Source: a virus (taxonomy: Duplodnaviria; Heunggongvirae; Uroviricota; Caudoviricetes). Taken from it: 34,596 nucleotides of DNA. The notes beneath the pieces are model-generated. The model saw only the letters and a list, made by a program, of their open reading frames with translations, was not told the origin of the DNA and made no database searches. This document shows, in pieces, positions 3,155-34,596 of the stretch. Within the stretch, counting starts at the first letter, position 1. Each line of letters starts with the position of its first letter. The position numbers and the translations under genes were made by a program. The stretch lies in the IMG/VR virus record IMGVR_UViG_2541047860_000003, positions 1-34,596 of that record. One strand, 5' to 3'.

Positions 3155-3516
3155 TATGCTCCAGCCTCCGGTGCTTTTGGCATTACTGCCCAGTGAGTGA
3201 TATTGACGTTTTCAAGGTCCCCGACCTGAAATGTCCACTGCCATTCTCCGGTTTCTTTTTGTCCCCAGGTGTACCAGAGAGAACGCCAGCCAATTAGCCA
3301 GCCTTCTCCGTTAGCATCGAATAACAAAACACTTTCATTTGCTGGTGGCAGTTCAGTTGACACTGGTATTACTTTGTTTTCCTGTGCTGCACATTTAGCT
3401 TCAAGCGCATCGAATTTACGCACCAGGTATTCAGCATCTGTTTCATTTACTTTCAGATCTCGCGGTACACATCTCCCACGAAGAAACCCTTCCATTTCGA
3501 AAACATTCATGCGCAT
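3154..3516 (-). CDS. DUF551-like phage protein (YfdS-like)
   Basis: 120-aa ORF with Trp-rich C-terminal motif (GWLIGWRSLWYTWGQKETGEWQW) recalled for DUF551 phage proteins; SD GGAG 8 nt upstream of ATG. Confidence 0.5.
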   Translation of the reverse strand: MRMNVFEMEGFLRGRCVPRDLKVNETDAEYLVRKFDALEAKCAAQENKVIPVSTELPPANESVLLFDANGEGWLIGWRSLWYTWGQKETGEWQWTFQVGDLENVNITHWAVMPKAPEAGA

Positions 3517-6586: not shown

Positions 6587-6754
6587 GTTGCTAACGAATC
6601 ATCCTGGACTTCATATGCCCCAGGCGGCTACTTCGTGGGCGTCCTGCCTGTTCGTTTTTGACATTTACTGACTGCTTACGACACATGCACCGTGTTGCAA
6701 CCAGATTTTGTTGTAATCCTGTAGTTGGTCTGGAACAAAAGATAAAATTAAATT

Positions 6755-8792: not shown

Positions 8793-9723
8793 ATTAACCG
8801 GCTATGTATGGGATGGTTGCGCTGCATCAGGCATGAAATTATCCAGCGTGGCAATTATGGCCCGCCTGGCTGATTTCAGTAATGACGAAGGTGTGTGCTG
8901 GCCATCAATTGAAACCATTGCCCGCCAGATTGGCGCGGGAATGAGTACCGTCAGAACGGCTATCGCACGGCTGGAAGCAGAAGGCTGGTTAACGCGTAAG
9001 GCGCGTCGCCAGGGTAACCGCAATGCGTCGAATGTTTATCAGCTTAACGTTGCGAAGCTTCAGGCAGCGGCATTTTCTCAACTGTCAGATTCTGACCCGT
9101 CAAAATCTGACGCATCAAAATCTGACCCGTCAAAATTTGATGCGTCGAAATCTGGCAAAAAAGCGGGTTTTCACCCGTCAGAATCTGGCGGGGATCCGTC
9201 AGTAAAATCAAAACATGATCCGTCAGATAAAAAACCTTCTCGTCCGGACGCTTCGCAACCGGACACGCAGACGGCTGAACAGGAGTTTTTAACTCGCCAT
9301 CCTGATGCGGTTGTATTCAGCCCTAAAAAGCGCCAGTGGGGAACGCAGGATGATTTGACCTGCGCACAGTGGCTCTGGAAAAAAATCATCGCCCTGTACG
9401 AGCAGGCCGCCGAATGTGACGGCGAGGTGGTTCGTCCCAAAGAACCGAACTGGACAGCCTGGGCAAACGAAATTCGCCTGATGTGTGTGCAGGATGGTCG
9501 TACTCATAAACAAATCTGCGAGATGTACAGCCGCGTCAGTCGCGATCCGTTCTGGTGCCGTAACGTGCTCAGCCCGTCGAAGCTGCGGGAAAAATGGGAT
9601 GAGCTTTCCCTGCGCTTATCGCCGTCCGTCAGCACGTACACCGAAAAACGCGAAGACCCGTACTTCAAAGCCAGTTACGACAACGTGGACTACAGCCAGA
9701 TCCCGGCAGGATTCAGGGGGTGA
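8782..9723 (+). CDS. Replication initiator, lambda O-like (HTH N-domain, repeat linker)
   Basis: 313-aa ORF; N-terminal winged-helix region (GMSTVRTAIARLEAEGWLTRKAR); internal tandem 15-bp repeats encoding SDPSK/SDASK as in iteron-bearing O-type genes. Confidence 0.7.
   Translation: MSTKLTGYVWDGCAASGMKLSSVAIMARLADFSNDEGVCWPSIETIARQIGAGMSTVRTAIARLEAEGWLTRKARRQGNRNASNVYQLNVAKLQAAAFSQLSDSDPSKSDASKSDPSKFDASKSGKKAGFHPSESGGDPSVKSKHDPSDKKPSRPDASQPDTQTAEQEFLTRHPDAVVFSPKKRQWGTQDDLTCAQWLWKKIIALYEQAAECDGEVVRPKEPNWTAWANEIRLMCVQDGRTHKQICEMYSRVSRDPFWCRNVLSPSKLREKWDELSLRLSPSVSTYTEKREDPYFKASYDNVDYSQIPAGFRG
9091..9150. repeat. Four tandem 15-bp iterons inside the O-like gene (putative phage ori)
   Basis: TCTGACCCGTCAAAA / TCTGACGCATCAAAA / TCTGACCCGTCAAAA / TTTGATGCGTCGAAA in tandem, followed by further CCGTCAG copies and an A-rich stretch to about 9240. 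Confidence 0.5.
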
Positions 9724-27644: not shown

Positions 27645-28000
27645 TGGCCCGTATCGGGGGAACCTGTTATTTCAAAATTGACGGTCAACAGCTATCGCTG
27701 ACCGGCGGCATTGAGGTGCCCATGAACAGGACGGTCAATGATGACATCATCGGCCTGGACGGTTCAGTGGACCGCAAGGAAACTCACCGTGCGCCTTATG
27801 TCAAAGGGACTTTCAAGGTGCCGAAGAATTTTCCGGTGAACAAAATCACCTCGTCTGATGAGATGACTATCACTGCCGAGCTGGCGAACGGTCAGGTCTA
27901 TGTACTGTCGTCTGCCTGGCTGCACGGCGAAGCGAACCATAATGCCGAAGAAGGTACGGTTGATCTTGAGTTCCACGGTGAAGAAGGGGATTACCAGTAA
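27644..28000 (+). CDS. Tail tube protein
   Basis: 118 aa directly after the sheath, start overlapping the sheath stop. Confidence 0.7.
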   Translation: MARIGGTCYFKIDGQQLSLTGGIEVPMNRTVNDDIIGLDGSVDRKETHRAPYVKGTFKVPKNFPVNKITSSDEMTITAELANGQVYVLSSAWLHGEANHNAEEGTVDLEFHGEEGDYQ

Positions 28001-28269
28001 TGAAAGAGCTTGAGTTAAAGAAACCGATTACTGCTCATGGCGAGACACTCTCCGTACTGGAGTTTGATGAGCCTACCGGGAAGGATGTCCGCGAGCTGGG
28101 GTATCCCTACCAGATGAATCAGGATGAGTCCGTCAGACTTCTGGCGCATGTGGTGTCGAAATACATTGTGCGGCTGGCGAAAGTGCCGCAAAGCTCTGTC
28201 GACCAGATGTCTCCGGCAGACCTGAATGCAGCGGCGTGGCTTGTGGCTGGTTTTTTCCTCCAGGCCTGA
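28000..28269 (+). CDS. Tail assembly chaperone (G-like)
   Basis: 89 aa after the tube; the slippery heptamer T_TTT_TTC sits in its last codons, allowing a -1 shift into the following frame. Confidence 0.55.
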   Translation: MKELELKKPITAHGETLSVLEFDEPTGKDVRELGYPYQMNQDESVRLLAHVVSKYIVRLAKVPQSSVDQMSPADLNAAAWLVAGFFLQA

Positions 28270-29783
28270 CGGCTGAATACCTCACTGATCGCTTCTTTGA
28301 CTGCGCCAGCTACTGGCGCATTAATCCCTTCGAATTGCTGAATTTGCCGTTCAGTAAAGTTGGAGCGAAAGCGCGGATTGCCAGGGTGCTCGATAAGCAT
28401 GGTCTTGTCGGTGATTATCGCGATGTGACCCGATATAGCATTGCCTCTGGTTATCCTTTCGACGGTGATGAGGTGACCGCCGAAATGGCAGAGTGTGAAA
28501 ACCTGTTTTCTGTGCCGGTTGACGTAATGATCACAAAGGTACAGGAAGATAAAGTCAGTGGCGTAGAGGTCGTAAAGGCGTGGAAATCTCTGCCTACCGC
28601 CGAAAATATCCAATGGGTATTTGAGCGCATCGGAGCCATGCCCGCTCGTAACATGATGTCGGCAAAAATTGAGCTTCTCAGCCTGGACGGCTGCAACTCT
28701 GGTGTTAGCGAGGTATCAGCGACCAGCCAGTTATTGAGCGAGTGCGCTCGCCGTGGAGTTCCCGACAAGAACTACGCAGCACACCTGGAATCAATCGCAG
28801 AACGCAATGCGTTTCACCCCATCAATGAGATTCTCAAATTCCGGCAATGGGATGGCAAAAACCGCGTTGCTGATGTGCTAGGCGCTATCAAGACTGATGA
28901 TGACCCATATTCTCATCAAATCCTGCTGAAATGGCTGGCTGGCGCGATTTGCGCCATTGATAGCGGCAGCGTGGCTATTAAGTTTTGCCCGGTCATTCAT
29001 AGCAAGGCCAACAACTGGTACAAGTCGCAGCTACCGGAGCGCCTGTTTAATCTGGTTGAAGGTGCTTTTGGTGGCGCTATCGGCATCCCGGAGCCATCGA
29101 ACAAAGACGACCTGATGAAATCAATTAGCGCCTGGTGTTATGAATTTGGCGAACTGGCTGGAATGACTAAGCGTGACGCAGAGGCTATCAAAAGCTTTAT
29201 CCCGATGAGTGAGGATATTTTCCGGTTGCCGTATGGCCGGTGTAATCTTTCCAAGCCGCGTCAGACGGTGTACATCGGCACAACTAACCGTGATGACTTC
29301 ATTCATGATGAGACAATCGCTACACGCTTCCCGGTTATTAAGCTCGCCTCACCGATTGACATCGAGCGTATCAATAAAGCACTTGGCTACGAGTTCGACG
29401 GCAACAGGGCCGTACTGACTGACCGCGAACAACTGATCCAATTCTGGCTTGAGGTTCGCCAGATGGTTGCAGACGGCCTTAATTACGTTATTGACGGTGA
29501 GTTGCTGGCTATTACCAGAGGGAAGAACAAAGAGTTCGAGTCGAGAACCAGCTATGACACCACGCTGCTTGATACGCTGGCGATGCACGATGGCCGCACA
29601 TATCAGACCACAACGCAGATATGCAATGAAATCGGCGTGCCGGTTGATAAGCGAGTACATGTGGGCAGGGCTCTCAACAAGCTTTCGGATAATGGTGTTA
29701 TTGAAAAGAAAGTGACAGGTGGAGTGGCTTACTACACCTTCCCCACGCGGGTTAACTATTTACCAACCCGAAATCCCGAATAA
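28236..29783 (+). CDS. VirE-like protein with degenerate P-loop and C-terminal winged helix; N-terminus continuous with the chaperone -1 frame (possible fusion)
   Basis: 515-aa ORF; central region ...KSFIPMSEDIFRLPYGRCNLSKPRQTVYIGTTNRDDFIHDETIATRFPVIKL resembles the VirE / primase C-terminal family, but the Walker A position reads HSKANNWYKS; C-terminal 60 aa are similar to the C-terminus of the 118-aa protein at 30441..30797. Confidence 0.45.
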   Translation: MACGWFFPPGLTAEYLTDRFFDCASYWRINPFELLNLPFSKVGAKARIARVLDKHGLVGDYRDVTRYSIASGYPFDGDEVTAEMAECENLFSVPVDVMITKVQEDKVSGVEVVKAWKSLPTAENIQWVFERIGAMPARNMMSAKIELLSLDGCNSGVSEVSATSQLLSECARRGVPDKNYAAHLESIAERNAFHPINEILKFRQWDGKNRVADVLGAIKTDDDPYSHQILLKWLAGAICAIDSGSVAIKFCPVIHSKANNWYKSQLPERLFNLVEGAFGGAIGIPEPSNKDDLMKSISAWCYEFGELAGMTKRDAEAIKSFIPMSEDIFRLPYGRCNLSKPRQTVYIGTTNRDDFIHDETIATRFPVIKLASPIDIERINKALGYEFDGNRAVLTDREQLIQFWLEVRQMVADGLNYVIDGELLAITRGKNKEFESRTSYDTTLLDTLAMHDGRTYQTTTQICNEIGVPVDKRVHVGRALNKLSDNGVIEKKVTGGVAYYTFPTRVNYLPTRNPE

Positions 29784-29799
29784 CCAGAACACAATCCAA

Positions 29800-29824
29800 C
29801 CCTGCTACGGCAGGGTTTTTTTTG
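29800..29824 (+). terminator. Strong intrinsic terminator
   Basis: CCCTGC-TACG-GCAGGG followed by nine T residues. Confidence 0.75.
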
Positions 29825-29920
29825 CCTCGTGATCGTGACTGCTTAGCCAGAAAAGGTCAAAAGAAAGCCACTGGAAAGAAAGTCAAAACCGGCCCCTGCT
29901 ATCCCGCCGCGCTCAGGTGG

Positions 29921-30265
29921 GGTACTCCACCTACTCCCCCTACTGATGTTACTCCACCTTGTTACTCCACCTGTTTAACTGAATGATATTAAATAAGAAA
30001 AACCAAAAGGTGGAGTAGGTGGGGTAAAAAGCCGCAAAAACTCCAGAGATTTAATCAGCGGTAAAAATACAACCACCTATGGGCTATATACTACTTATCT
30101 AATTAAATAATAATTATATATAAAGTTACTCCACCTACTCCCCCTAAAGAAAATAAAGTTAAATATAAACAATATGTTAGCTCATAAAAGGCATTTAATT
30201 TACCCCCCCTTTTACCCCACCTTTACTCCCCCTATGAAACTTACCCCCCCTGATTTACCCCACCT
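29921..30265. repeat. Iteron array with AT-rich region (putative plasmid-type origin)
   Basis: At least 12 copies of the 10-mer TAC(T/C)CC(A/C)CCT in both orientations (29921..29972 direct, 30007..30025 inverted, 30126..30145, 30198..30265) around an AT-rich stretch at 30060..30180. Confidence 0.6.
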
Positions 30266-30385
30266 GATGCAGGAATCTAGCAGGAAAGTTGATAGAAAAG
30301 GCATTTTGTATTTGCGGAAGTGGTATGTAGACGATCCGCTTTCTTTTCCCAGTGGCTTACTTCCACTATCTCTGCAATTCGCTCG

Positions 30386-30414
30386 CGTAGTCTGATGTTG
30401 GTATAATGAACCAT
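30386..30414 (+). promoter_or_regulatory. Sigma70-type promoter with extended -10 (TGgTATAATGAACC)
   Basis: GTTGGTATAATGAACC about 30 bp upstream of the 118-aa gene; near-identical to GGTGGTATAATGAACC at 31973..31988. Confidence 0.5.
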
Positions 30415-30440
30415 ATAACCAACAATGCAGAGATGCGACG

Positions 30441-30797
30441 ATGACCAATGAAACAAAGGCTTTCACGGTACGAATTCCCGCAGTCGTTTATCAGGCAATT
30501 GCTGAACGGGCAAAAAATGAAGGCCGGTCACTCAGCTACATGGTGAGCAATGCGCTCTGCGCGTTCGCTGGCATTGATGACGCCCAGGATGATTACGAAA
30601 CGCTTTTGCTTGAGGCAGTTAATACCGGGTCAAATATAAGGGCGCAGACAGTGACGGAAATTTGCAGCGTTATCGGTGTGGATGCTGCCAGGCGGATTCA
30701 TGTAGGCAAGGCATTGCGAAAACTGGCAAGTGGCGGAGCGGTAGTCATGCGGAACCGCAGCGGGTGCAGAGTCTATAAATTTCCTTCTAGCGTATAA
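30441..30797 (+). CDS. RHH (CopG-like) N-domain plus winged-helix C-domain regulator
   Basis: N-terminal KAFTVRIPAVVYQAIAERAKNEGRSLSYMVSNALCAF is ribbon-helix-helix-like; C-terminus similar to that of the 515-aa protein. Confidence 0.5.
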   Translation: MTNETKAFTVRIPAVVYQAIAERAKNEGRSLSYMVSNALCAFAGIDDAQDDYETLLLEAVNTGSNIRAQTVTEICSVIGVDAARRIHVGKALRKLASGGAVVMRNRSGCRVYKFPSSV

Positions 30798-31024
30798 TGG
30801 GCAACATGAACAAATTCGACAGAGTGAAACGCCTTGAAGCGTTCAAGCCAAAGCAGCATGAAGCTGTTCTATCAATTCTCCGGGAGCGTGCTGACATGCC
30901 GTCAGGCAATGCCGGGGAATGCGTGTTTGCCATTCTCATGAAGAAATATGCTTCGGCACAGCAAAAGCCCGCAGGTATCCAGGCGTCCGGCGGGGAAAAT
31001 TCTTTTCTTCCAGTGGCTAATTGA
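30797..31024 (+). CDS. Hypothetical 75-aa protein
   Basis: ORF start overlaps the preceding stop (TAATGG); no motif recognised. Confidence 0.3.
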   Translation: MGNMNKFDRVKRLEAFKPKQHEAVLSILRERADMPSGNAGECVFAILMKKYASAQQKPAGIQASGGENSFLPVAN

Positions 31025-31056
31025 CAGAATAACCCAACGGCAAAGTTGAGGCGTGT

Positions 31057-31512
31057 ATGAAAGACAATACCGTAAATGACGCACCTGATAACGAGCAGCC
31101 CGATATCGAACGTGATAAGCGGGGGCGGTTTACTAAGGGGCAATCAGGAAACCCATCAGGGCGAACCAGAAAGGAGCGCCAGTTATTAACAATGATGGGT
31201 GATGATGCTGACAGCGTGGCGCAAATCGTCATTGATGCGGCAAAGGGCGGTGACATGCAGGCTTGCCGCTTGGTACTTGAAAGGGTGCTTCCCGTCCGCA
31301 AGGCCAGATATGAGGCCGTAGAGTTTGAAATTGATGACACCACACTTGCAGGCTCTGCAAAGTCAATTCTTGCAGCTGTAGCAGGTGGAGATCTGCCACC
31401 AGACGTGGGCGCAATGCTTCTCCAATCAGTAGCTCAAACGGCGAAGATTATCGAGATTGACGAACTTGAGCGGCGAATCGCAGCACTGGAGAAAGGCAAT
31501 GAAACTGAATAA
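31057..31512 (+). CDS. DUF5681-like protein
   Basis: N-terminal KRGRFTKGQSGNPSGRTRKER motif recalled for DUF5681-type plasmid/phage proteins. Confidence 0.4.
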   Translation: MKDNTVNDAPDNEQPDIERDKRGRFTKGQSGNPSGRTRKERQLLTMMGDDADSVAQIVIDAAKGGDMQACRLVLERVLPVRKARYEAVEFEIDDTTLAGSAKSILAAVAGGDLPPDVGAMLLQSVAQTAKIIEIDELERRIAALEKGNETE

Positions 31513-31954
31513 ACGGCTTGAAGCTCTGGAGCAGCGTAGGCCCACGAAGAAGGGCGCAGAGGCTCTCACCGATGAAGAGCTGGCCGCAGCTATCGCCAGG
31601 TTTACACCGGAAGAGATCCGCGCAGCAGAACGGGAGTTATTGCTATGGTTAGGTTAACGCGACGCCTTGAGGTTCTGGAGGAGCAGAGACAGCGTCAGCA
31701 ACCGAAGATCGATTTCCCGCTATATACCATCATTGACAAGCCATCTATACAGACACCCCGCAAGCACTCATTTTCCAATCCTCCCGCTTATCTCTTGGTG
31801 AACTCCTGAAACGAAAAAGCCCCCACATTTCTGTAGGGGCCGTTTCGTCAATCTGCGTTTGATGGTCGGAAGGATGGCCGACAACCTAATTATGCACCGG
31901 CCTGTAAAAATGTACCAGCCTTAAATACAGAAAATCGTAAAAACTTAATCACGA

Positions 31955-31990
31955 TTTTCCGTAAATCATTAACGGTGGTATAATGAACCG
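31955..31990 (+). promoter_or_regulatory. Promoter with extended -10 plus palindromic operator
   Basis: ACAGAAAATCGTAAAAACTTAATCACGATTTTCCGT palindrome followed by GGTGGTATAATGAACC, upstream of the 134-aa gene. Confidence 0.45.
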
Positions 31991-32005
31991 TCAATCCTTC
32001 TTTTA

Positions 32006-32410
32006 ATGGTGATAGCGATGAACGAAGTAGATTCAATTCTGGCCGAGCAGAAAAGAGCCGCAGAACAACGCCGCTTGGCTAATGAGAAGAAGCGCCATCC
32101 ATCCGGCCTGTACGATGCGGGTGATGGGTGGTATGTGAAGCAAATCGAAGAGCTTCACTCCCCGCTGGGTCTCAGTAAGGTGGTTCTGGTAAGCCCTGAT
32201 GATGTTTGTGTGAGATATCAGCGCCAATATGGCAAAGCACTCACCACTGACAAATTGAAGGAATGGAGCAGGGACGGGAACTTCCCGTTGCCGCGCTCTA
32301 TTAATGGGGTTATCGGTTGGGAATCGAATGTTGTGACCAATGGCCTGAATGAACTGAGCAAAGCAGCCGGTCGCGGCTTTACCTGTATCACTCGAGGATT
32401 CGCACGATGA
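32006..32410 (+). CDS. Hypothetical 134-aa protein
   Basis: ORF downstream of the promoter/operator; no motif recognised. Confidence 0.35.
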   Translation: MVIAMNEVDSILAEQKRAAEQRRLANEKKRHPSGLYDAGDGWYVKQIEELHSPLGLSKVVLVSPDDVCVRYQRQYGKALTTDKLKEWSRDGNFPLPRSINGVIGWESNVVTNGLNELSKAAGRGFTCITRGFAR

Positions 32411-32613
32411 GCAAAGAATCTGTAATCGCGGCATTGAAAAAAGCGCGTGAAGCGCGTGAAGGCAATATCTTCGGTGGTACTGGGCAGGCCGAATTTAACA
32501 AAGATTTTTATGCTGGCCGCGCCACCAAAACAGATGGTGTCAGTAAGACCGACAGTAACGAGCCGATGAACCAAAAGGCATTTAATGCCCGGTTCTACTC
32601 CGGTAAAGGCTGA
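32407..32613 (+). CDS. Hypothetical 68-aa protein
   Basis: Start overlaps the previous stop (ATGA); Lys/Gly-rich. Confidence 0.3.
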   Translation: MSKESVIAALKKAREAREGNIFGGTGQAEFNKDFYAGRATKTDGVSKTDSNEPMNQKAFNARFYSGKG

Positions 32614-32708
32614 TTATAGGCAATCGGGCATATCGCAATTGCTGCCCGACTGTTTGGATTGTGACTGTTGAGAAATAGACGCAATTCCGCAATTACAGAA
32701 AATCGCAT

Positions 32709-32933
32709 TTACTTATTTCCGTATTTCTCCATTAGTAACTCTCTAACCTCATCGGCAATCTTTGCTCCTCTCTCTGCTGTTTGCATCTTGATGGCACGGT
32801 GCAAAGATTCAGGGATATCAATCGTCAGGCGCTTCATTTTTTCCGTTTCTTCTGGCGCTGTTACGCGGTCACTAATCCAGGCGTCTGCTGATGCTGGCGT
32901 TGGTTTTTTGCCAATTGAAATCTTCTTGCTCAC
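32709..32933 (-). CDS. ParG-like RHH centromere-binding protein
   Basis: 74 aa; GTG start overlapping the parA stop; C-terminal KRLTIDIPESLHRAIKMQTAERGAKIADEVRELL is ribbon-helix-helix-like. Confidence 0.55.
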   Translation of the reverse strand: MSKKISIGKKPTPASADAWISDRVTAPEETEKMKRLTIDIPESLHRAIKMQTAERGAKIADEVRELLMEKYGNK

Positions 32934-33559
32934 TTCATTATCTCCAGCAGTTCATTAATCAGGTTCTCAATCTCTGCAACAGCCTGGCTGTTAGCGTCTA
33001 CCTCATGCAGAGCTTTACCACTCGCCGCAGCCTCTGCGAATATCACTCGCTGGGTTATTGCAGTTTGCAATGTTGGGATGTCATAAGCGGCTAAAGCCTC
33101 GCGAACATCACGCCCAATAGCTGTATTTGCGATTTTACGATTAATCACAAAACATGATTTGATGTTTTCTTTAAATACAGAAGCCTCAGCAATGAGTTTT
33201 ACTATCTCATCGGCGGCCCATATGTCATATGGTGATGGTTGAACCGGTATAAGCACCGCATCGGATGCCATGATTGCAGAACGTGCCAGGTCAGTGACTC
33301 GCGGGGCACTATCAATTACAACATGGTCATAGCCTTTCGCCAGTTCCTGAACCTCTTTATGAATTGTGGCGCGGGGAAGCCCAACGACAGAGAATAATGG
33401 TTCCCCATCTCTCGCCGCCTGCCAATCTAACGCGCTCCCTTGCGGGTCTGCATCGAGCAGCAGCACCCGGCAGCCTCTCCGGGCAAGGCTTGCCGCAACG
33501 TTCACAGAAAGCGTTGTTTTACCCACTCCGCCTTTTTGATTCAGTACGCCAATTATCAT
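32930..33559 (-). CDS. parA: ParA-type partition ATPase (small type Ib)
   Basis: Deviant Walker A MIIGVLNQKGGVGKTT..., LLDADPQGS, 209 aa. Confidence 0.85.
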   Translation of the reverse strand: MIIGVLNQKGGVGKTTLSVNVAASLARRGCRVLLLDADPQGSALDWQAARDGEPLFSVVGLPRATIHKEVQELAKGYDHVVIDSAPRVTDLARSAIMASDAVLIPVQPSPYDIWAADEIVKLIAEASVFKENIKSCFVINRKIANTAIGRDVREALAAYDIPTLQTAITQRVIFAEAAASGKALHEVDANSQAVAEIENLINELLEIMK

Positions 33560-33703
33560 GTCGACCTCTATCCAGTTTTGGCCAGATGGTACAGAAAATC
33601 GTAAAAACTTAAAAGCGTATCTTCTAATTTACAGATGAATAATCCTGTTAAATACACGCGGCAGCCCTCGTTTTTTCGTCCAGTGGCCATATTAGCGGGC
33701 CAT

Positions 33704-33735
33704 TTGACATGGCTTCAAAACGGCTTCAAAATGAT
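33704..33735 (+). promoter_or_regulatory. Sigma70-like promoter with direct-repeat operator
   Basis: TTGACA at 33704..33709, 17-bp spacer containing GGCTTCAAAA twice, then CAAAAT; upstream of the RHH gene. Confidence 0.4.
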
Positions 33736-33756
33736 GCCATAACCATAGGGGGATTT

Positions 33757-33915
33757 ATGCCAACACCAAAACCGAAAACCATCACATTCAGGCTTTCAGA
33801 TGAACTACTGGAAGATCTTAAGCGCCTTGCCGACGATGAAGGACGCTCTATTAATTCGATGCTCACGGAGTTGGTGAAGCGAGCCGCTAAAAAGCAGGAT
33901 GGCGAAAGTAAATGA
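33757..33915 (+). CDS. Small RHH (CopG/Arc-type) DNA-binding protein
   Basis: 52 aa from internal ATG; KTITFRLSDELLEDLKRLADDEGRSINSMLTELV is an RHH signature. Confidence 0.5.
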   Translation: MPTPKPKTITFRLSDELLEDLKRLADDEGRSINSMLTELVKRAAKKQDGESK

Positions 33916-34337
33916 GAAAAACACTCCTGGCATTAATCGTTATCTTGGGGTCAGTTTGGAGATCGGAAATTTCTGTACGTTAAGCGCATTATTTAACCAA
34001 TCTTGGTTCGTAAGGGGTTGATTTTGCGTCAGTGGCTATCGCTTTTAAGTTGTCGCTCTTGCAGTATCGCATTTAGGTTATCCGATTAAGGTCAAACCTC
34101 TGAAAATGCCGTATAGCGCGGGAGTACACCCTATTGCGATAGCGCGATCTGTTCAAAAAACAGGCTTAACGTACAATAATTTCCGATCTCCAAACTCACC
34201 CCTTATTCACGCTGGCCAACCTGTTTCGGGCGGACCAAATGATACGTCAGTGGGAGAGATCTCACTAAAAACTGGGGATAGCGCCTTAAATGGCGAAGAA
34301 ACGGTCTAAATAGGCTGATTCAAGGCATTTACGGGAG

Positions 34338-34596
34338 GGTGATGCTGCCAACTTACTGATTTAGTGTATGATGGTGTTTTTGAGGTGCTCCAGTGGCTTC
34401 TGTTTCTATCAGCTGTCCCTCCTGTTCAGCTACTGACGGGGTGGTGCGTAACGGCAAAAGCACCGCCGGACATCAGCGCTATCTCTGCTCTCACTGCCGT
34501 AAAACATGGCAACTGCAGTTCACTTACACCGCTTCTCAACCCGGTACGCACCAGAAAATCATTGATATGGCCATGAATGGCGTTGGATGCCGGGCA
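34338..34596 (+). mobile_element. IS1 left end (partial, continues beyond window)
   Basis: Starts with the IS1 terminal repeat GGTGATGCTGCCAACTTACTGATTTAGTGTATGATGG and continues into insA; matches IS1 from memory. Confidence 0.9.
34393..34596 (+). CDS. insA: IS1 InsA (5' portion, truncated by window end)
   Basis: GTG start; translation [68 protein letters not shown] matches IS1 InsA. Confidence 0.85.

Follow-up and report, generated by a model that had tools for sequence, protein, structure and literature searches.

The par locus of the window (the whole 34,596-nucleotide stretch of DNA analysed, IMG/VR virus record IMGVR_UViG_2541047860_000003) very probably holds two independent modules, a TP228-like partition cassette with box arrays and an Arc-like gene predicted to repress itself, together with an artefactual open reading frame, all on a fragment that now resides in a chromosome. 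ParA/ParG-type cassettes, Arc-like repressors and the miniature element MITESen1 are already established, and little of this is new in kind. The analysis does define likely cis sites for NF041546, a widespread and little-studied ParA/ParG family, in the form of arrays with an 8-bp period at both ends of the operon, and such arrays can guide the annotation of centromeres on many plasmids. It also traces the cassette to a family of small satellite-like plasmids, one fragment of which entered E. coli chromosomes along with MITESen1, IS5 and IS1.

The parA and parG-like gene pair

The partition cassette comprises two genes encoded on the same strand.

32930 to 33559, minus strand: parA, encoding a 209-aa type Ib partition ATPase without an N-terminal DNA-binding domain
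32709 to 32933, minus strand: parG-like gene, encoding a 74-aa ribbon-helix-helix (RHH) protein, a putative centromere-binding protein

The parA product carries the deviant Walker A motif KGGVGKTT at residues 9 to 16 (MIIGVLNQKGGVGKTT in the translation), as the earlier note on this DNA had recognised, and it matches the NCBIfam equivalog NF041546 ('ParA family partition ATPase') with 283 bits, where the cutoff is 180. Matches are also found to AAA_31 and CbiA in Pfam and to PHROG 164, which is annotated as ParA-like. Its closest solved relatives in the PDB are ParF of TP228 (4dzz, a match that spans residues 2 to 207) and ParA (5u1g), at E 1e-30. The protein thus resembles ParF as a small ParA-type ATPase that lacks an N-terminal domain, yet at this E value the two are distant from one another.

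The product of the parG-like gene begins with a flexible, basic tail (MSKKISIGKKP...) and ends in an RHH domain. As a single sequence it scores 20.8 bits against Pfam ParG, just below the gathering cutoff of 21.4, and it matches ParG in the PDB (1p94) with E 0.0016. When a profile built from 34 homologues is used, 1p94 becomes the top PDB match at E 1.1e-6, above ParD and omega. Like TP228 ParG, which is the best PDB match for the profile, it is an RHH protein of about 75 aa that has a flexible tail and is encoded downstream of the ATPase. Identity is about 30%, and the tail motif here is lysine-rich (xKKxxIGxKP), with no arginine finger evident.

The GTG start of the parG-like gene lies within the parA stop codon (GTGA), such that the two genes overlap by 4 nt, and a GGAG sequence is located 9 nt upstream of this start. 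The earlier note had described the two genes as translationally coupled, and their overlap proves to be conserved. Among 80 genome loci of ParA relatives, drawn from alpha-, beta- and gammaproteobacteria and cyanobacteria, a ParG-like homologue directly follows parA in 76, and the 4-nt overlap is kept in 69 of these 76. The classification as a type Ib partition pair, also made in that note, is upheld by the PDB matches to ParF/ParA and ParG and by the conservation of the pair. Sequence comparison thus supports an assignment as an ordinary plasmid partition cassette of the ParA/ParG type, from which we infer partition activity.

Box arrays flanking the operon and in front of ORF130

Three sets of 8-bp units, each consisting of a C-N-N-A box and an AT-rich spacer, had escaped the earlier note. 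These are probably sites for the ParG-like protein, wherein array A is the proposed operator and centromere, array B a second cluster and array C a third.

33592 to 33639, plus strand: box array A, six 8-bp units (CAGAAAAT CGTAAAAA CTTAAAAG CGTATCTT CTAATTTA CAGATGAA)
32680 to 32727, plus strand: box array B, six 8-bp units (CGCAATTC CGCAATTA CAGAAAAT CGCATTTA CTTATTTC CGTATTTC)
31920 to 31963, plus strand: box array C, four 8-bp units (31920 to 31951) plus an inverted partner (31948 to 31963)

Array A is located 33 to 80 nt upstream of the parA ATG, in a stretch that overlaps the place where the parA promoter lies in the family. A promoter scan of the region returned no parA promoter at threshold, and the best candidate, TTTTAA-17-TACCAT, agrees at 7 of 12 positions. 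Array B spans the stop codon of the parG-like gene. Array C, at a distance of 1.66 kb, precedes ORF130, and a TGgTATAAT -10 element for ORF130/ORF68 is found just downstream of it. The exact 19-mer TACAGAAAATCGTAAAAAC begins 2 nt before array A and lies mostly within it (33590 to 33608), and array C holds a second perfect copy (31926 to 31944), where zero exact repeats are expected by chance. Runs of at least four units occur three times in the whole window, all at the par locus, compared with an expectation of 0.013 that is optimistic because the unit rule was derived from arrays A to C themselves.

Independent loci of the family carry related sequences in the same places. When the strict unit rule is applied to them, runs of at least two units are found in 26 of 64 regions upstream of parA versus 6 of 64 far-upstream controls; runs of at least four units were found in none of the 64. 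Unit runs also occur at the parG ends of independent family loci, and of 77 homologous loci, most have the motif family of array A ahead of parA. The G/C content upstream of family parA genes is periodic, with z scores of 10.9 at a lag of 8 and 9.2 at a lag of 16, with troughs at lags of 4, 12 and 20, and with a reach of at least 24 nt. The word AATCGT is present in 40 of 63 upstream regions and 27 of 63 parG ends, versus none of 63 far-upstream regions and 2 of 63 regions inside parA, and around the parG stop AATCGT and CGTAAA each occur in 27 to 28 of the 63 loci versus 0 to 4 in the far-upstream controls. Moreover, the motif accompanies ParA/ParG on unrelated replicons across many phyla. 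Array C is kept in a relative that bears par (L001), whereas integrated relatives that lack par (L098) have unrelated sequence in its place.

In plasmid TP228, the OF and parH sites are composed of tetramer boxes separated by regular 4-bp AT-rich spacers and are bound by ParG (PMC3130281). The arrays described here likewise combine 4-bp boxes with AT-rich spacers at an 8-bp period over the promoter region. They differ in that their boxes conform to C-N-N-A (CGTA, CAGA, CGCA) rather than to ACTC, and in that clusters flank the operon on both sides and are joined by a distant third, whereas those of TP228 lie upstream only. The par2 locus of pB171 (parA-parB, with parC1/parC2) is a type Ib system in which clusters of centromere repeats flank the two genes on either side; its repeats are 6-bp units, and its likeness to the present locus is a lead only.

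An alternative is that the arrays are promoter or AT-rich features, or that a different factor binds them, for instance a protein of the element that acts in replication or packaging. Array C does precede a different operon, and in many family members the conserved motif partly coincides with the -10 hexamer (CTGTAAAAT), so some of the motif conservation is promoter conservation. However, at the 3′ end of parG, a place where one would not expect a promoter, the motif words show equal enrichment, and the periodicity reaches over at least 24 nt. The association of the motif with ParA/ParG on unrelated replicons, the fact that relatives of the ORF130 operon without par are also without the motif, and the fit of the array architecture to the experimentally defined ParG sites of TP228 further argue against this explanation, which we judge improbable. 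If the arrays are ParG sites, then by analogy with the family, dimers of the ParG-like RHH protein would coat the 8-bp units, thereby repressing parAG and forming the partition complex. Through its basic N-terminal tail, this protein would then stimulate a nucleoid-bound ParA-ATP dimer so that plasmid copies are moved apart.

The Arc-like gene and the adjoining 23-codon ORF

To the right of array A, a short gene is transcribed away from parA.

33757 to 33915, plus strand: Arc/Mnt-like RHH repressor gene, 52 aa, divergent from parA
33704 to 33732, plus strand: promoter-like site, with TTGACA at 33704 to 33709, a 17-nt spacer and CAAAAT at 33727 to 33732

The divergent small RHH protein reported in the earlier note is indeed encoded here. 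Its start is not 33709, a position inside the promoter, but 33757, which is preceded by GGGGGA and is also used in the RefSeq annotation of E. coli C10. The protein matches RHH_5 (33.6 bits, cutoff 26) and Arc (25.3 bits, cutoff 20.4) in Pfam, Arc-like repressor families in PHROG (E 3e-8), and, with similarity at the level of the fold, Arc and Mnt in the PDB (E 5e-4 to 3e-2). A search of viral contigs with the protein revealed no relatives, and the protein database contains two near-identical clusters only.

The TTGACA-17-CAAAAT site is the sole strong sigma-70-like match in the intergenic region, agreeing at 10 of 12 positions. As previously noted, its spacer contains GGCTTCAAAA twice; the tandem copies (33711 to 33720 and 33722 to 33731), which follow one another at an 11-bp period, take up the spacer and extend into the -10 hexamer. 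For an exact 10-mer that recurs within 10 to 21 nt, simulation gives an expectation of 0.4 cases per 34.6-kb window, and four further 10-mer repeats of this type are present elsewhere in the window. The expectation for a 200-bp spacer is about 0.002, and thus the repeat is above chance at that place. The site is unchanged in L001 and L099 despite differences in neighbouring bases; the available relatives are all at least 98% identical, and the 11-bp duplication could be neutral. It is plausible that the tandem serves as a putative auto-operator, wherein two dimers of the 52-aa protein, bound 11 bp apart, would cover the spacer and the -10 element and probably repress the gene's own promoter. 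Such an arrangement would resemble those of P22 Arc/Mnt and CopG, in that a single-RHH protein of about 50 aa is encoded by the first gene of an operon, with a putative operator that overlaps the promoter of this gene. It would differ from Arc in its putative operator, where two 10-bp copies in direct tandem (11-bp period) take the place of a symmetric 21-bp site.

Because parA and the RHH gene are divergent, with start codons 197 bp apart, the RHH protein might be considered a third partition component, either as a second centromere-binding protein or as a par regulator at a shared control region. One PHROG that it matches, phrog_795, is labelled 'partition protein ATPase', and the gene adjoins par in all members of the 11-13 kb element family described below. 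This possibility seems quite improbable to us when the wider family is considered, where the Arc-like gene is absent from all 80 of the genome loci that carry ParA relatives. It is also missing from the closest relatives on viral contigs, of which L088-L090 and L094 were inspected, and a DUF5681-like gene occupies its position there. Furthermore, GGCTTCAAAA is unlike the family-wide par boxes and sits on the RHH gene's own promoter, 120 bp from array A, and in intact relatives (L102-L105) the RHH gene heads a rightward operon of unrelated genes (RHH, ORF195, ORF134 and so on). On these comparisons, the Arc-like gene is a module separate from the partition cassette.

Immediately downstream, an ORF of 23 codons (33912 to 33983) begins with an ATG that overlaps the RHH stop codon (ATGA), just as the earlier note had described. 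Two unrelated sequences meet within it.

33912 to 33946, plus strand: 5′ stub of a 195-aa gene (ORF195), its first 12 codons (MRKTLLALIVIL)
33947 to 34202, minus strand: MITESen1, a 256-bp Tn3-derived miniature element with 38-bp terminal inverted repeats

The intact ORF195 (MRKTSLALIVILSASAGAAVSYMAATQK...) encodes 195 aa with a hydrophobic N-terminus, is coupled by the same ATGA to the RHH stop, and is present in four independent contigs (L102-L105), relatives of about 13.3 kb. The stub and the intact gene are identical at the DNA level up to ...CGTTATCTT and divergent beyond. Codons 13 to 23 and the stop codon of the short ORF fall within the 38-bp terminal inverted repeat of MITESen1. The 23-codon ORF is therefore not a gene, and instead is a junction artefact in which 12 codons of ORF195 run into the terminal repeat of the inserted element. 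The ORF is absent in relatives, where either ORF195 is deleted (L001) or both the stub and the MITE are deleted (L099-L101). When the 47-nt stub/MITE junction was used in a BLAST search of E. coli genomes and plasmids, only two identical chromosomal copies were recovered. An exact search of metagenome and viral contigs with the 28-nt start of the stub yielded nothing, and the intact gene was found through the RHH protein. We also considered L099 as the uninterrupted ancestor downstream of the RHH gene and rejected it, as the 3′ end of its RHH gene is fused to an IS5 fragment through ATGGCGAA microhomology, a secondary deletion.

The structure of this junction refutes, at the level of gene structure, the speculative suggestion in the earlier note of a toxin-antitoxin-like pair made up of the RHH protein and a hydrophobic peptide of 23 residues. 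In favour of such a pair, many type II antitoxins have RHH domains, the RHH protein has weak, sub-threshold matches to the CopG_antitoxin and FitA-like families, the peptide is hydrophobic, and the ATGA overlap suggests translational coupling. Against it stand the origin of the ORF from the start of a 195-aa gene and a MITESen1 repeat, and its absence from the relatives named above. In addition, PADLOC, Pfam and PHROG assign neither the peptide nor ORF195 to a family, toxin and defence families included, and an Rfam scan of positions 31500 to 34596 gave no family at threshold, with two sub-threshold chance matches. We consider such a pair exceedingly improbable, and the peptide, an insertion artefact, can be dropped from consideration as a toxin.

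The parent element and its chromosomal setting

The locus is a fragment of about 5.6 kb (about 28343 to 33946) of a plasmid- or satellite-like element of 11-13 kb, stranded in the E. coli chromosome as a relic beside an SfII-like prophage. At the left breakpoint, about 28343, no MITE or IS end was found. On record as a circular Shigella plasmid of 13.3 kb, the parent element has genes for an AlpA-like HTH protein, a VapE primase-helicase, a DUF5681 protein and an integrase, as well as tail-related genes. ORF195, ORF134, ORF130 and ORF68 gave no match in PADLOC, Pfam, PHROG or NCBIfam. In its present chromosomal setting, the cassette is probably without a role.

The conserved operon ORF130-ORF68 occurs without array C in about 940 E. 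coli genomes. One might speculate that the parent is a phage-satellite-like replicon living as a plasmid, in which array C replaced the native promoter region of ORF130-ORF68, a satellite operon in this view, such that occupancy by the ParG-like protein would couple partition to satellite expression; we regard this scenario as unlikely, and offer it tentatively.

To the right of the RHH gene, a pile-up of mobile elements, overlooked in the earlier note, begins with MITESen1 and continues to the end of the window.

34203 to 34337, plus strand: IS5 3′ fragment, covering the last part of the transposase gene and some of the right end
34338 to 34596, plus strand: IS1 left end, which continues beyond the window

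The MITESen1 copy is identical at 243 of 256 positions, without gaps, to the ISfinder sequence given in Table S2 of PMC13367494, and thus shares its 256-bp length, 95% identity and 38-bp Tn3-type repeats (GGGG...ACGTTAAG). Its inverted repeats (33947 to 33984 and 34165 to 34202) were found with 0 and 3 mismatches. Unlike the reference, this copy is chromosomal, which is rare for such elements, abuts an IS5 fragment and is without the 5-bp target-site duplication, the flanks being ATCTT and TTATT. The missing duplication is consistent with a later rearrangement, and MITESen1 copies without direct repeats have also been reported (PMC13367494). A text search of the literature with the MITE terminal repeat and the par box motif strings returned nothing relevant. 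The IS5 fragment shares 99.3% identity with IS5 as recorded in phage P1 and elsewhere, and the MITE-IS5 junction is shared with plasmid NZ_CP063501. The IS1 left end is 100% identical to an IS1A-type copy in E. coli C10.

The partition pair and its probable ParG sites

The locus combines an ordinary type Ib partition cassette with a neighbouring Arc-like ribbon-helix-helix (RHH) repressor, both of kinds already known. Each feature described in an earlier note on this DNA is there, and the note identified the cassette and the repressor correctly. To that account our analysis adds probable ParG box arrays and a relic origin of the locus, and it removes a speculative toxin peptide. The cassette and its surroundings include the following features.

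Features of the cassette region
32930-33559, minus strand: parA, 209 aa, N-terminus MIIGVLNQKGGVGKTT
32709-32933, minus strand: ParG-like ORF, 74 aa, with a GTG start overlapping the parA stop (GTGA)
33592-33639: box array A, six units
32680-32727: box array B, six units, across the parG stop
31920-31951: box array C, four units
32018-32613 (7164-7759 in L098, a par-less integrated relative): ORF130 and ORF68, function of both unknown

ParA scores 283 bits against the NCBIfam equivalog "ParA family partition ATPase" (cutoff 180), and its nearest solved structures are TP228 ParF and ParA, matched over the full length with E 1e-30. As a single sequence, the 74-aa protein reaches 20.8 bits against Pfam ParG, slightly below the cutoff of 21.4, and by itself it matches the ParG structure 1p94 (E 0.0016). 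A profile built from 34 of its homologues finds ParG best (E 1.1e-6), with ParD and omega behind, and the alignment displays a conserved basic N-terminal tail, xKKxxIGxKP...W, followed by the RHH core KRLTIDIPESLH.... A scan for ParA relatives, using one genome per species, yielded 80 loci with ParA identities of 63-80%, spread over alpha-, beta- and gammaproteobacteria and cyanobacteria, among others. A homologue of the 74-aa protein lies immediately downstream of parA in 76 of these, 69 of which keep the 4-nt overlap. Together, the family scores, the structure matches and the conserved gene pair make the type Ib assignment proposed in the earlier note a sound one for parA and the 74-aa gene (parAG). 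In the gap separating the convergent genes ORF68 and parG, an inverted repeat at 32621-32652 (CAATCGGGCA, 12 nt, TGCCCGACTG) is followed by a T run and may be a bidirectional terminator.

The box arrays, which the earlier note overlooked, are probably the cis sites of ParG. The 19-mer TACAGAAAATCGTAAAAAC is present in two exact copies, at 33590 (31 nt 5′ of the parA ATG) and at 31926, against a chance expectation of 0, and degenerate copies are found at 32694 and, in inverted orientation, at 31948. The array unit is 8 nt long and consists of a C-N-N-A box and an AT-rich tetramer. Searching both strands of the whole window, we found runs of at least four units only in arrays A, B and C, the last of which is upstream of ORF130/ORF68; the corresponding expectation of 0.013 is optimistic because the unit rule was taken from these very arrays.

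Homologous loci carry related signals and support the arrays independently. A TTACGATTTTCTGTAAAAT-like sequence lies 5′ of parA, overlapping a −10 hexamer, in most of 77 loci. Across 70 distinct parA-upstream regions, G/C positions have an 8-bp periodicity (z of 10.9 at lag 8, 9.2 at lag 16 and 4.9 at lag 24), and there are troughs at lags of 4, 12 and 20. AATCGT-type words occur in 40/63 parA-upstream regions and 27/63 parG ends, compared with control counts of 0/63 for far-upstream regions and 2/63 for regions inside parA. The strict unit rule is likewise enriched at both cassette ends, but more weakly. For TP228, experiments have shown that ParG dimers bind tetramer boxes with regular 4-bp AT-rich spacers, both in the operator OF and in the centromere parH (PMC3130281). 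The arrays described here have the same architecture.

The divergent RHH gene and the 23-codon ORF

Features to the right of parA
33757-33915: Arc-like RHH gene, 52 aa, GGGGGA before the start
33912-33983: 23-codon ORF, ATG overlapping the RHH stop
33947-34202: MITESen1, 256 bp, Tn3-derived miniature element
34203-34337: IS5 3′ fragment, 135 bp
from 34338: IS1

As the earlier note described, a small RHH gene is encoded divergently, and a sequence is repeated in its promoter spacer. RefSeq, too, annotates the gene from 33757 in strain C10; an ATG at 33709 was rejected as the start, since it falls inside the promoter. The protein exceeds the cutoffs for Pfam RHH_5 and Arc, and it matches PHROG Arc-like repressor families as well as the Arc and Mnt structures. 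The only strong sigma-70-like site in the parA-RHH spacer (TTGACA at 33704-33709, 17 nt, CAAAAT at 33727-33732) agrees at 10/12 positions. Two copies of GGCTTCAAAA (33711-33720 and 33722-33731) fill the promoter spacer and extend into the −10 hexamer. Exact 10-mer repeats at 10-21 nt are expected 0.4 times per simulated window and about 0.002 times in the 200-bp parA-RHH spacer. It is a reasonable inference that the protein would repress its own synthesis through these repeats, as RHH repressors do; every available relative is at least 98% identical.

The RHH gene does not belong to the partition cassette: none of the 80 ParA loci has a homologue of it nearby, and the nearest viral-contig relatives (ParA 85-87% identical) have a DUF5681-like gene in its place. 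In intact relatives, the RHH gene is the first in a rightward operon that continues with ORF195, ORF134, ORF99 and so on.

The 23-codon ORF overlapping the RHH stop exists, and the earlier note had likened this arrangement to a toxin-antitoxin pair. The structure of the genes refutes that reading. Codons 1 to 12 (MRKTLLALIVIL) are the start of ORF195 (MRKTSLALIVILSASAGAAVSYMAATQK...), a 195-aa gene that is intact in four independent contigs and ATGA-coupled to the RHH stop, whereas codons 13 to 23 and the stop lie within the left terminal repeat of MITESen1. The window and intact ORF195 DNA match through ...CGTTATCTT and diverge exactly at the MITE end. Other relatives have no such ORF at all. 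In the Shigella flexneri plasmid, ORF195 has been lost by deletion between two GGATGGC repeats, leaving an RHH protein that ends in QDGTK. In three further relatives (L099-L101), a deletion between two ATGGCGAA repeats took out the ORF195 stub and the MITE together with part of the IS5 fragment, and the RHH protein ends in QDGEETV. These microhomology deletions at the RHH 3′ end map to L001 (the Shigella plasmid) 3355-3367, L102 (a relative with intact ORF195) 6728-6743 and L099 1650-1672. Neither the 23-codon peptide nor ORF195 matched any toxin, defence or other family, and no Rfam family reached threshold.

Origin of the locus

The window is E. coli chromosome, and 28000-34337 is 100% identical to strain C10. 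Up to about 28343 it is an SfII/SfV-like prophage, from terminase through a tail assembly gene. From there to 33946 it is a 5.6-kb fragment of another element, comprising a VapE-type primase-helicase truncated at its N-terminus, an iteron-like region, a DUF5681 protein, ORF130/ORF68, parAG and the RHH gene. The left end (28343-28345) lies inside the VapE gene, fused to the SfII-like tail assembly gene, and a search of this junction for an IS or MITE end found none. The breakpoint is identical in E. coli 2017-02-1CC (L003 ~9001-9008), where it adjoins a truncated caiC; thus, the fragment has moved between chromosomal sites as a unit.

Near-identical complete versions, namely the circular 13.3-kb Shigella flexneri plasmid and 11.3-13.3-kb contigs from several assemblies, additionally carry an AlpA-like HTH gene, an integrase, a Toprim protein and tail-related genes. 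The par locus is what remains of a small satellite-like plasmid, and at its present chromosomal site parAG most likely has no function. Directly after the primase-helicase gene, at 29920-30270, about ten repeats with the sequence TACTCCACCT, TACTCCCCCT or TACCCCACCT flank an AT-rich core (30080-30125) in both orientations, and this region looks like the origin, of iteron type, from which the parent element replicated.

Among 5426 complete E. coli genomes, ~940 carry ORF130/ORF68, in an integrated island of ~8 kb that has no par genes and adjoins dinD. With its integrase, AlpA, toprim and DUF927 genes, the island looks like a phage-satellite type. Unrelated sequence stands there in the place of array C (e.g. 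L098).

The MITESen1 copy aligns without gaps to the sequence that PMC13367494 gives from ISfinder, with 243/256 positions identical; chromosomal copies of the element are reported to be rare. Its 38-bp terminal repeats occupy 33947-33984 and 34165-34202, and no target duplication flanks it. MITESen1 and the same 135-bp IS5 fragment (33947-34337) recur at 99.5% identity in an unrelated E. coli plasmid, NZ_CP063501 (L002 3001-3391), and the two may travel together as one block. There it adjoins a DUF6694 lipoprotein gene, and DUF6694 also comes after the junction in L099; for the C10 gene at the equivalent place, the annotation says only alpha/beta hydrolase family protein. The window and C10 differ only to the right of 34337 (C10 locus L004 15338-17717). 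IS1 abuts the IS5 fragment in the window, whereas in C10 ~2.4 kb more, with a hydrolase/DUF6694-like gene and a complete IS5, precedes the same IS1. An adjacent deletion mediated by an IS would fit the arrangement at 34338. In the prophage part, an exact 12-nt repeat, TCAAAATCTGAC, occurs at 9100-9128 with 15-nt spacing.
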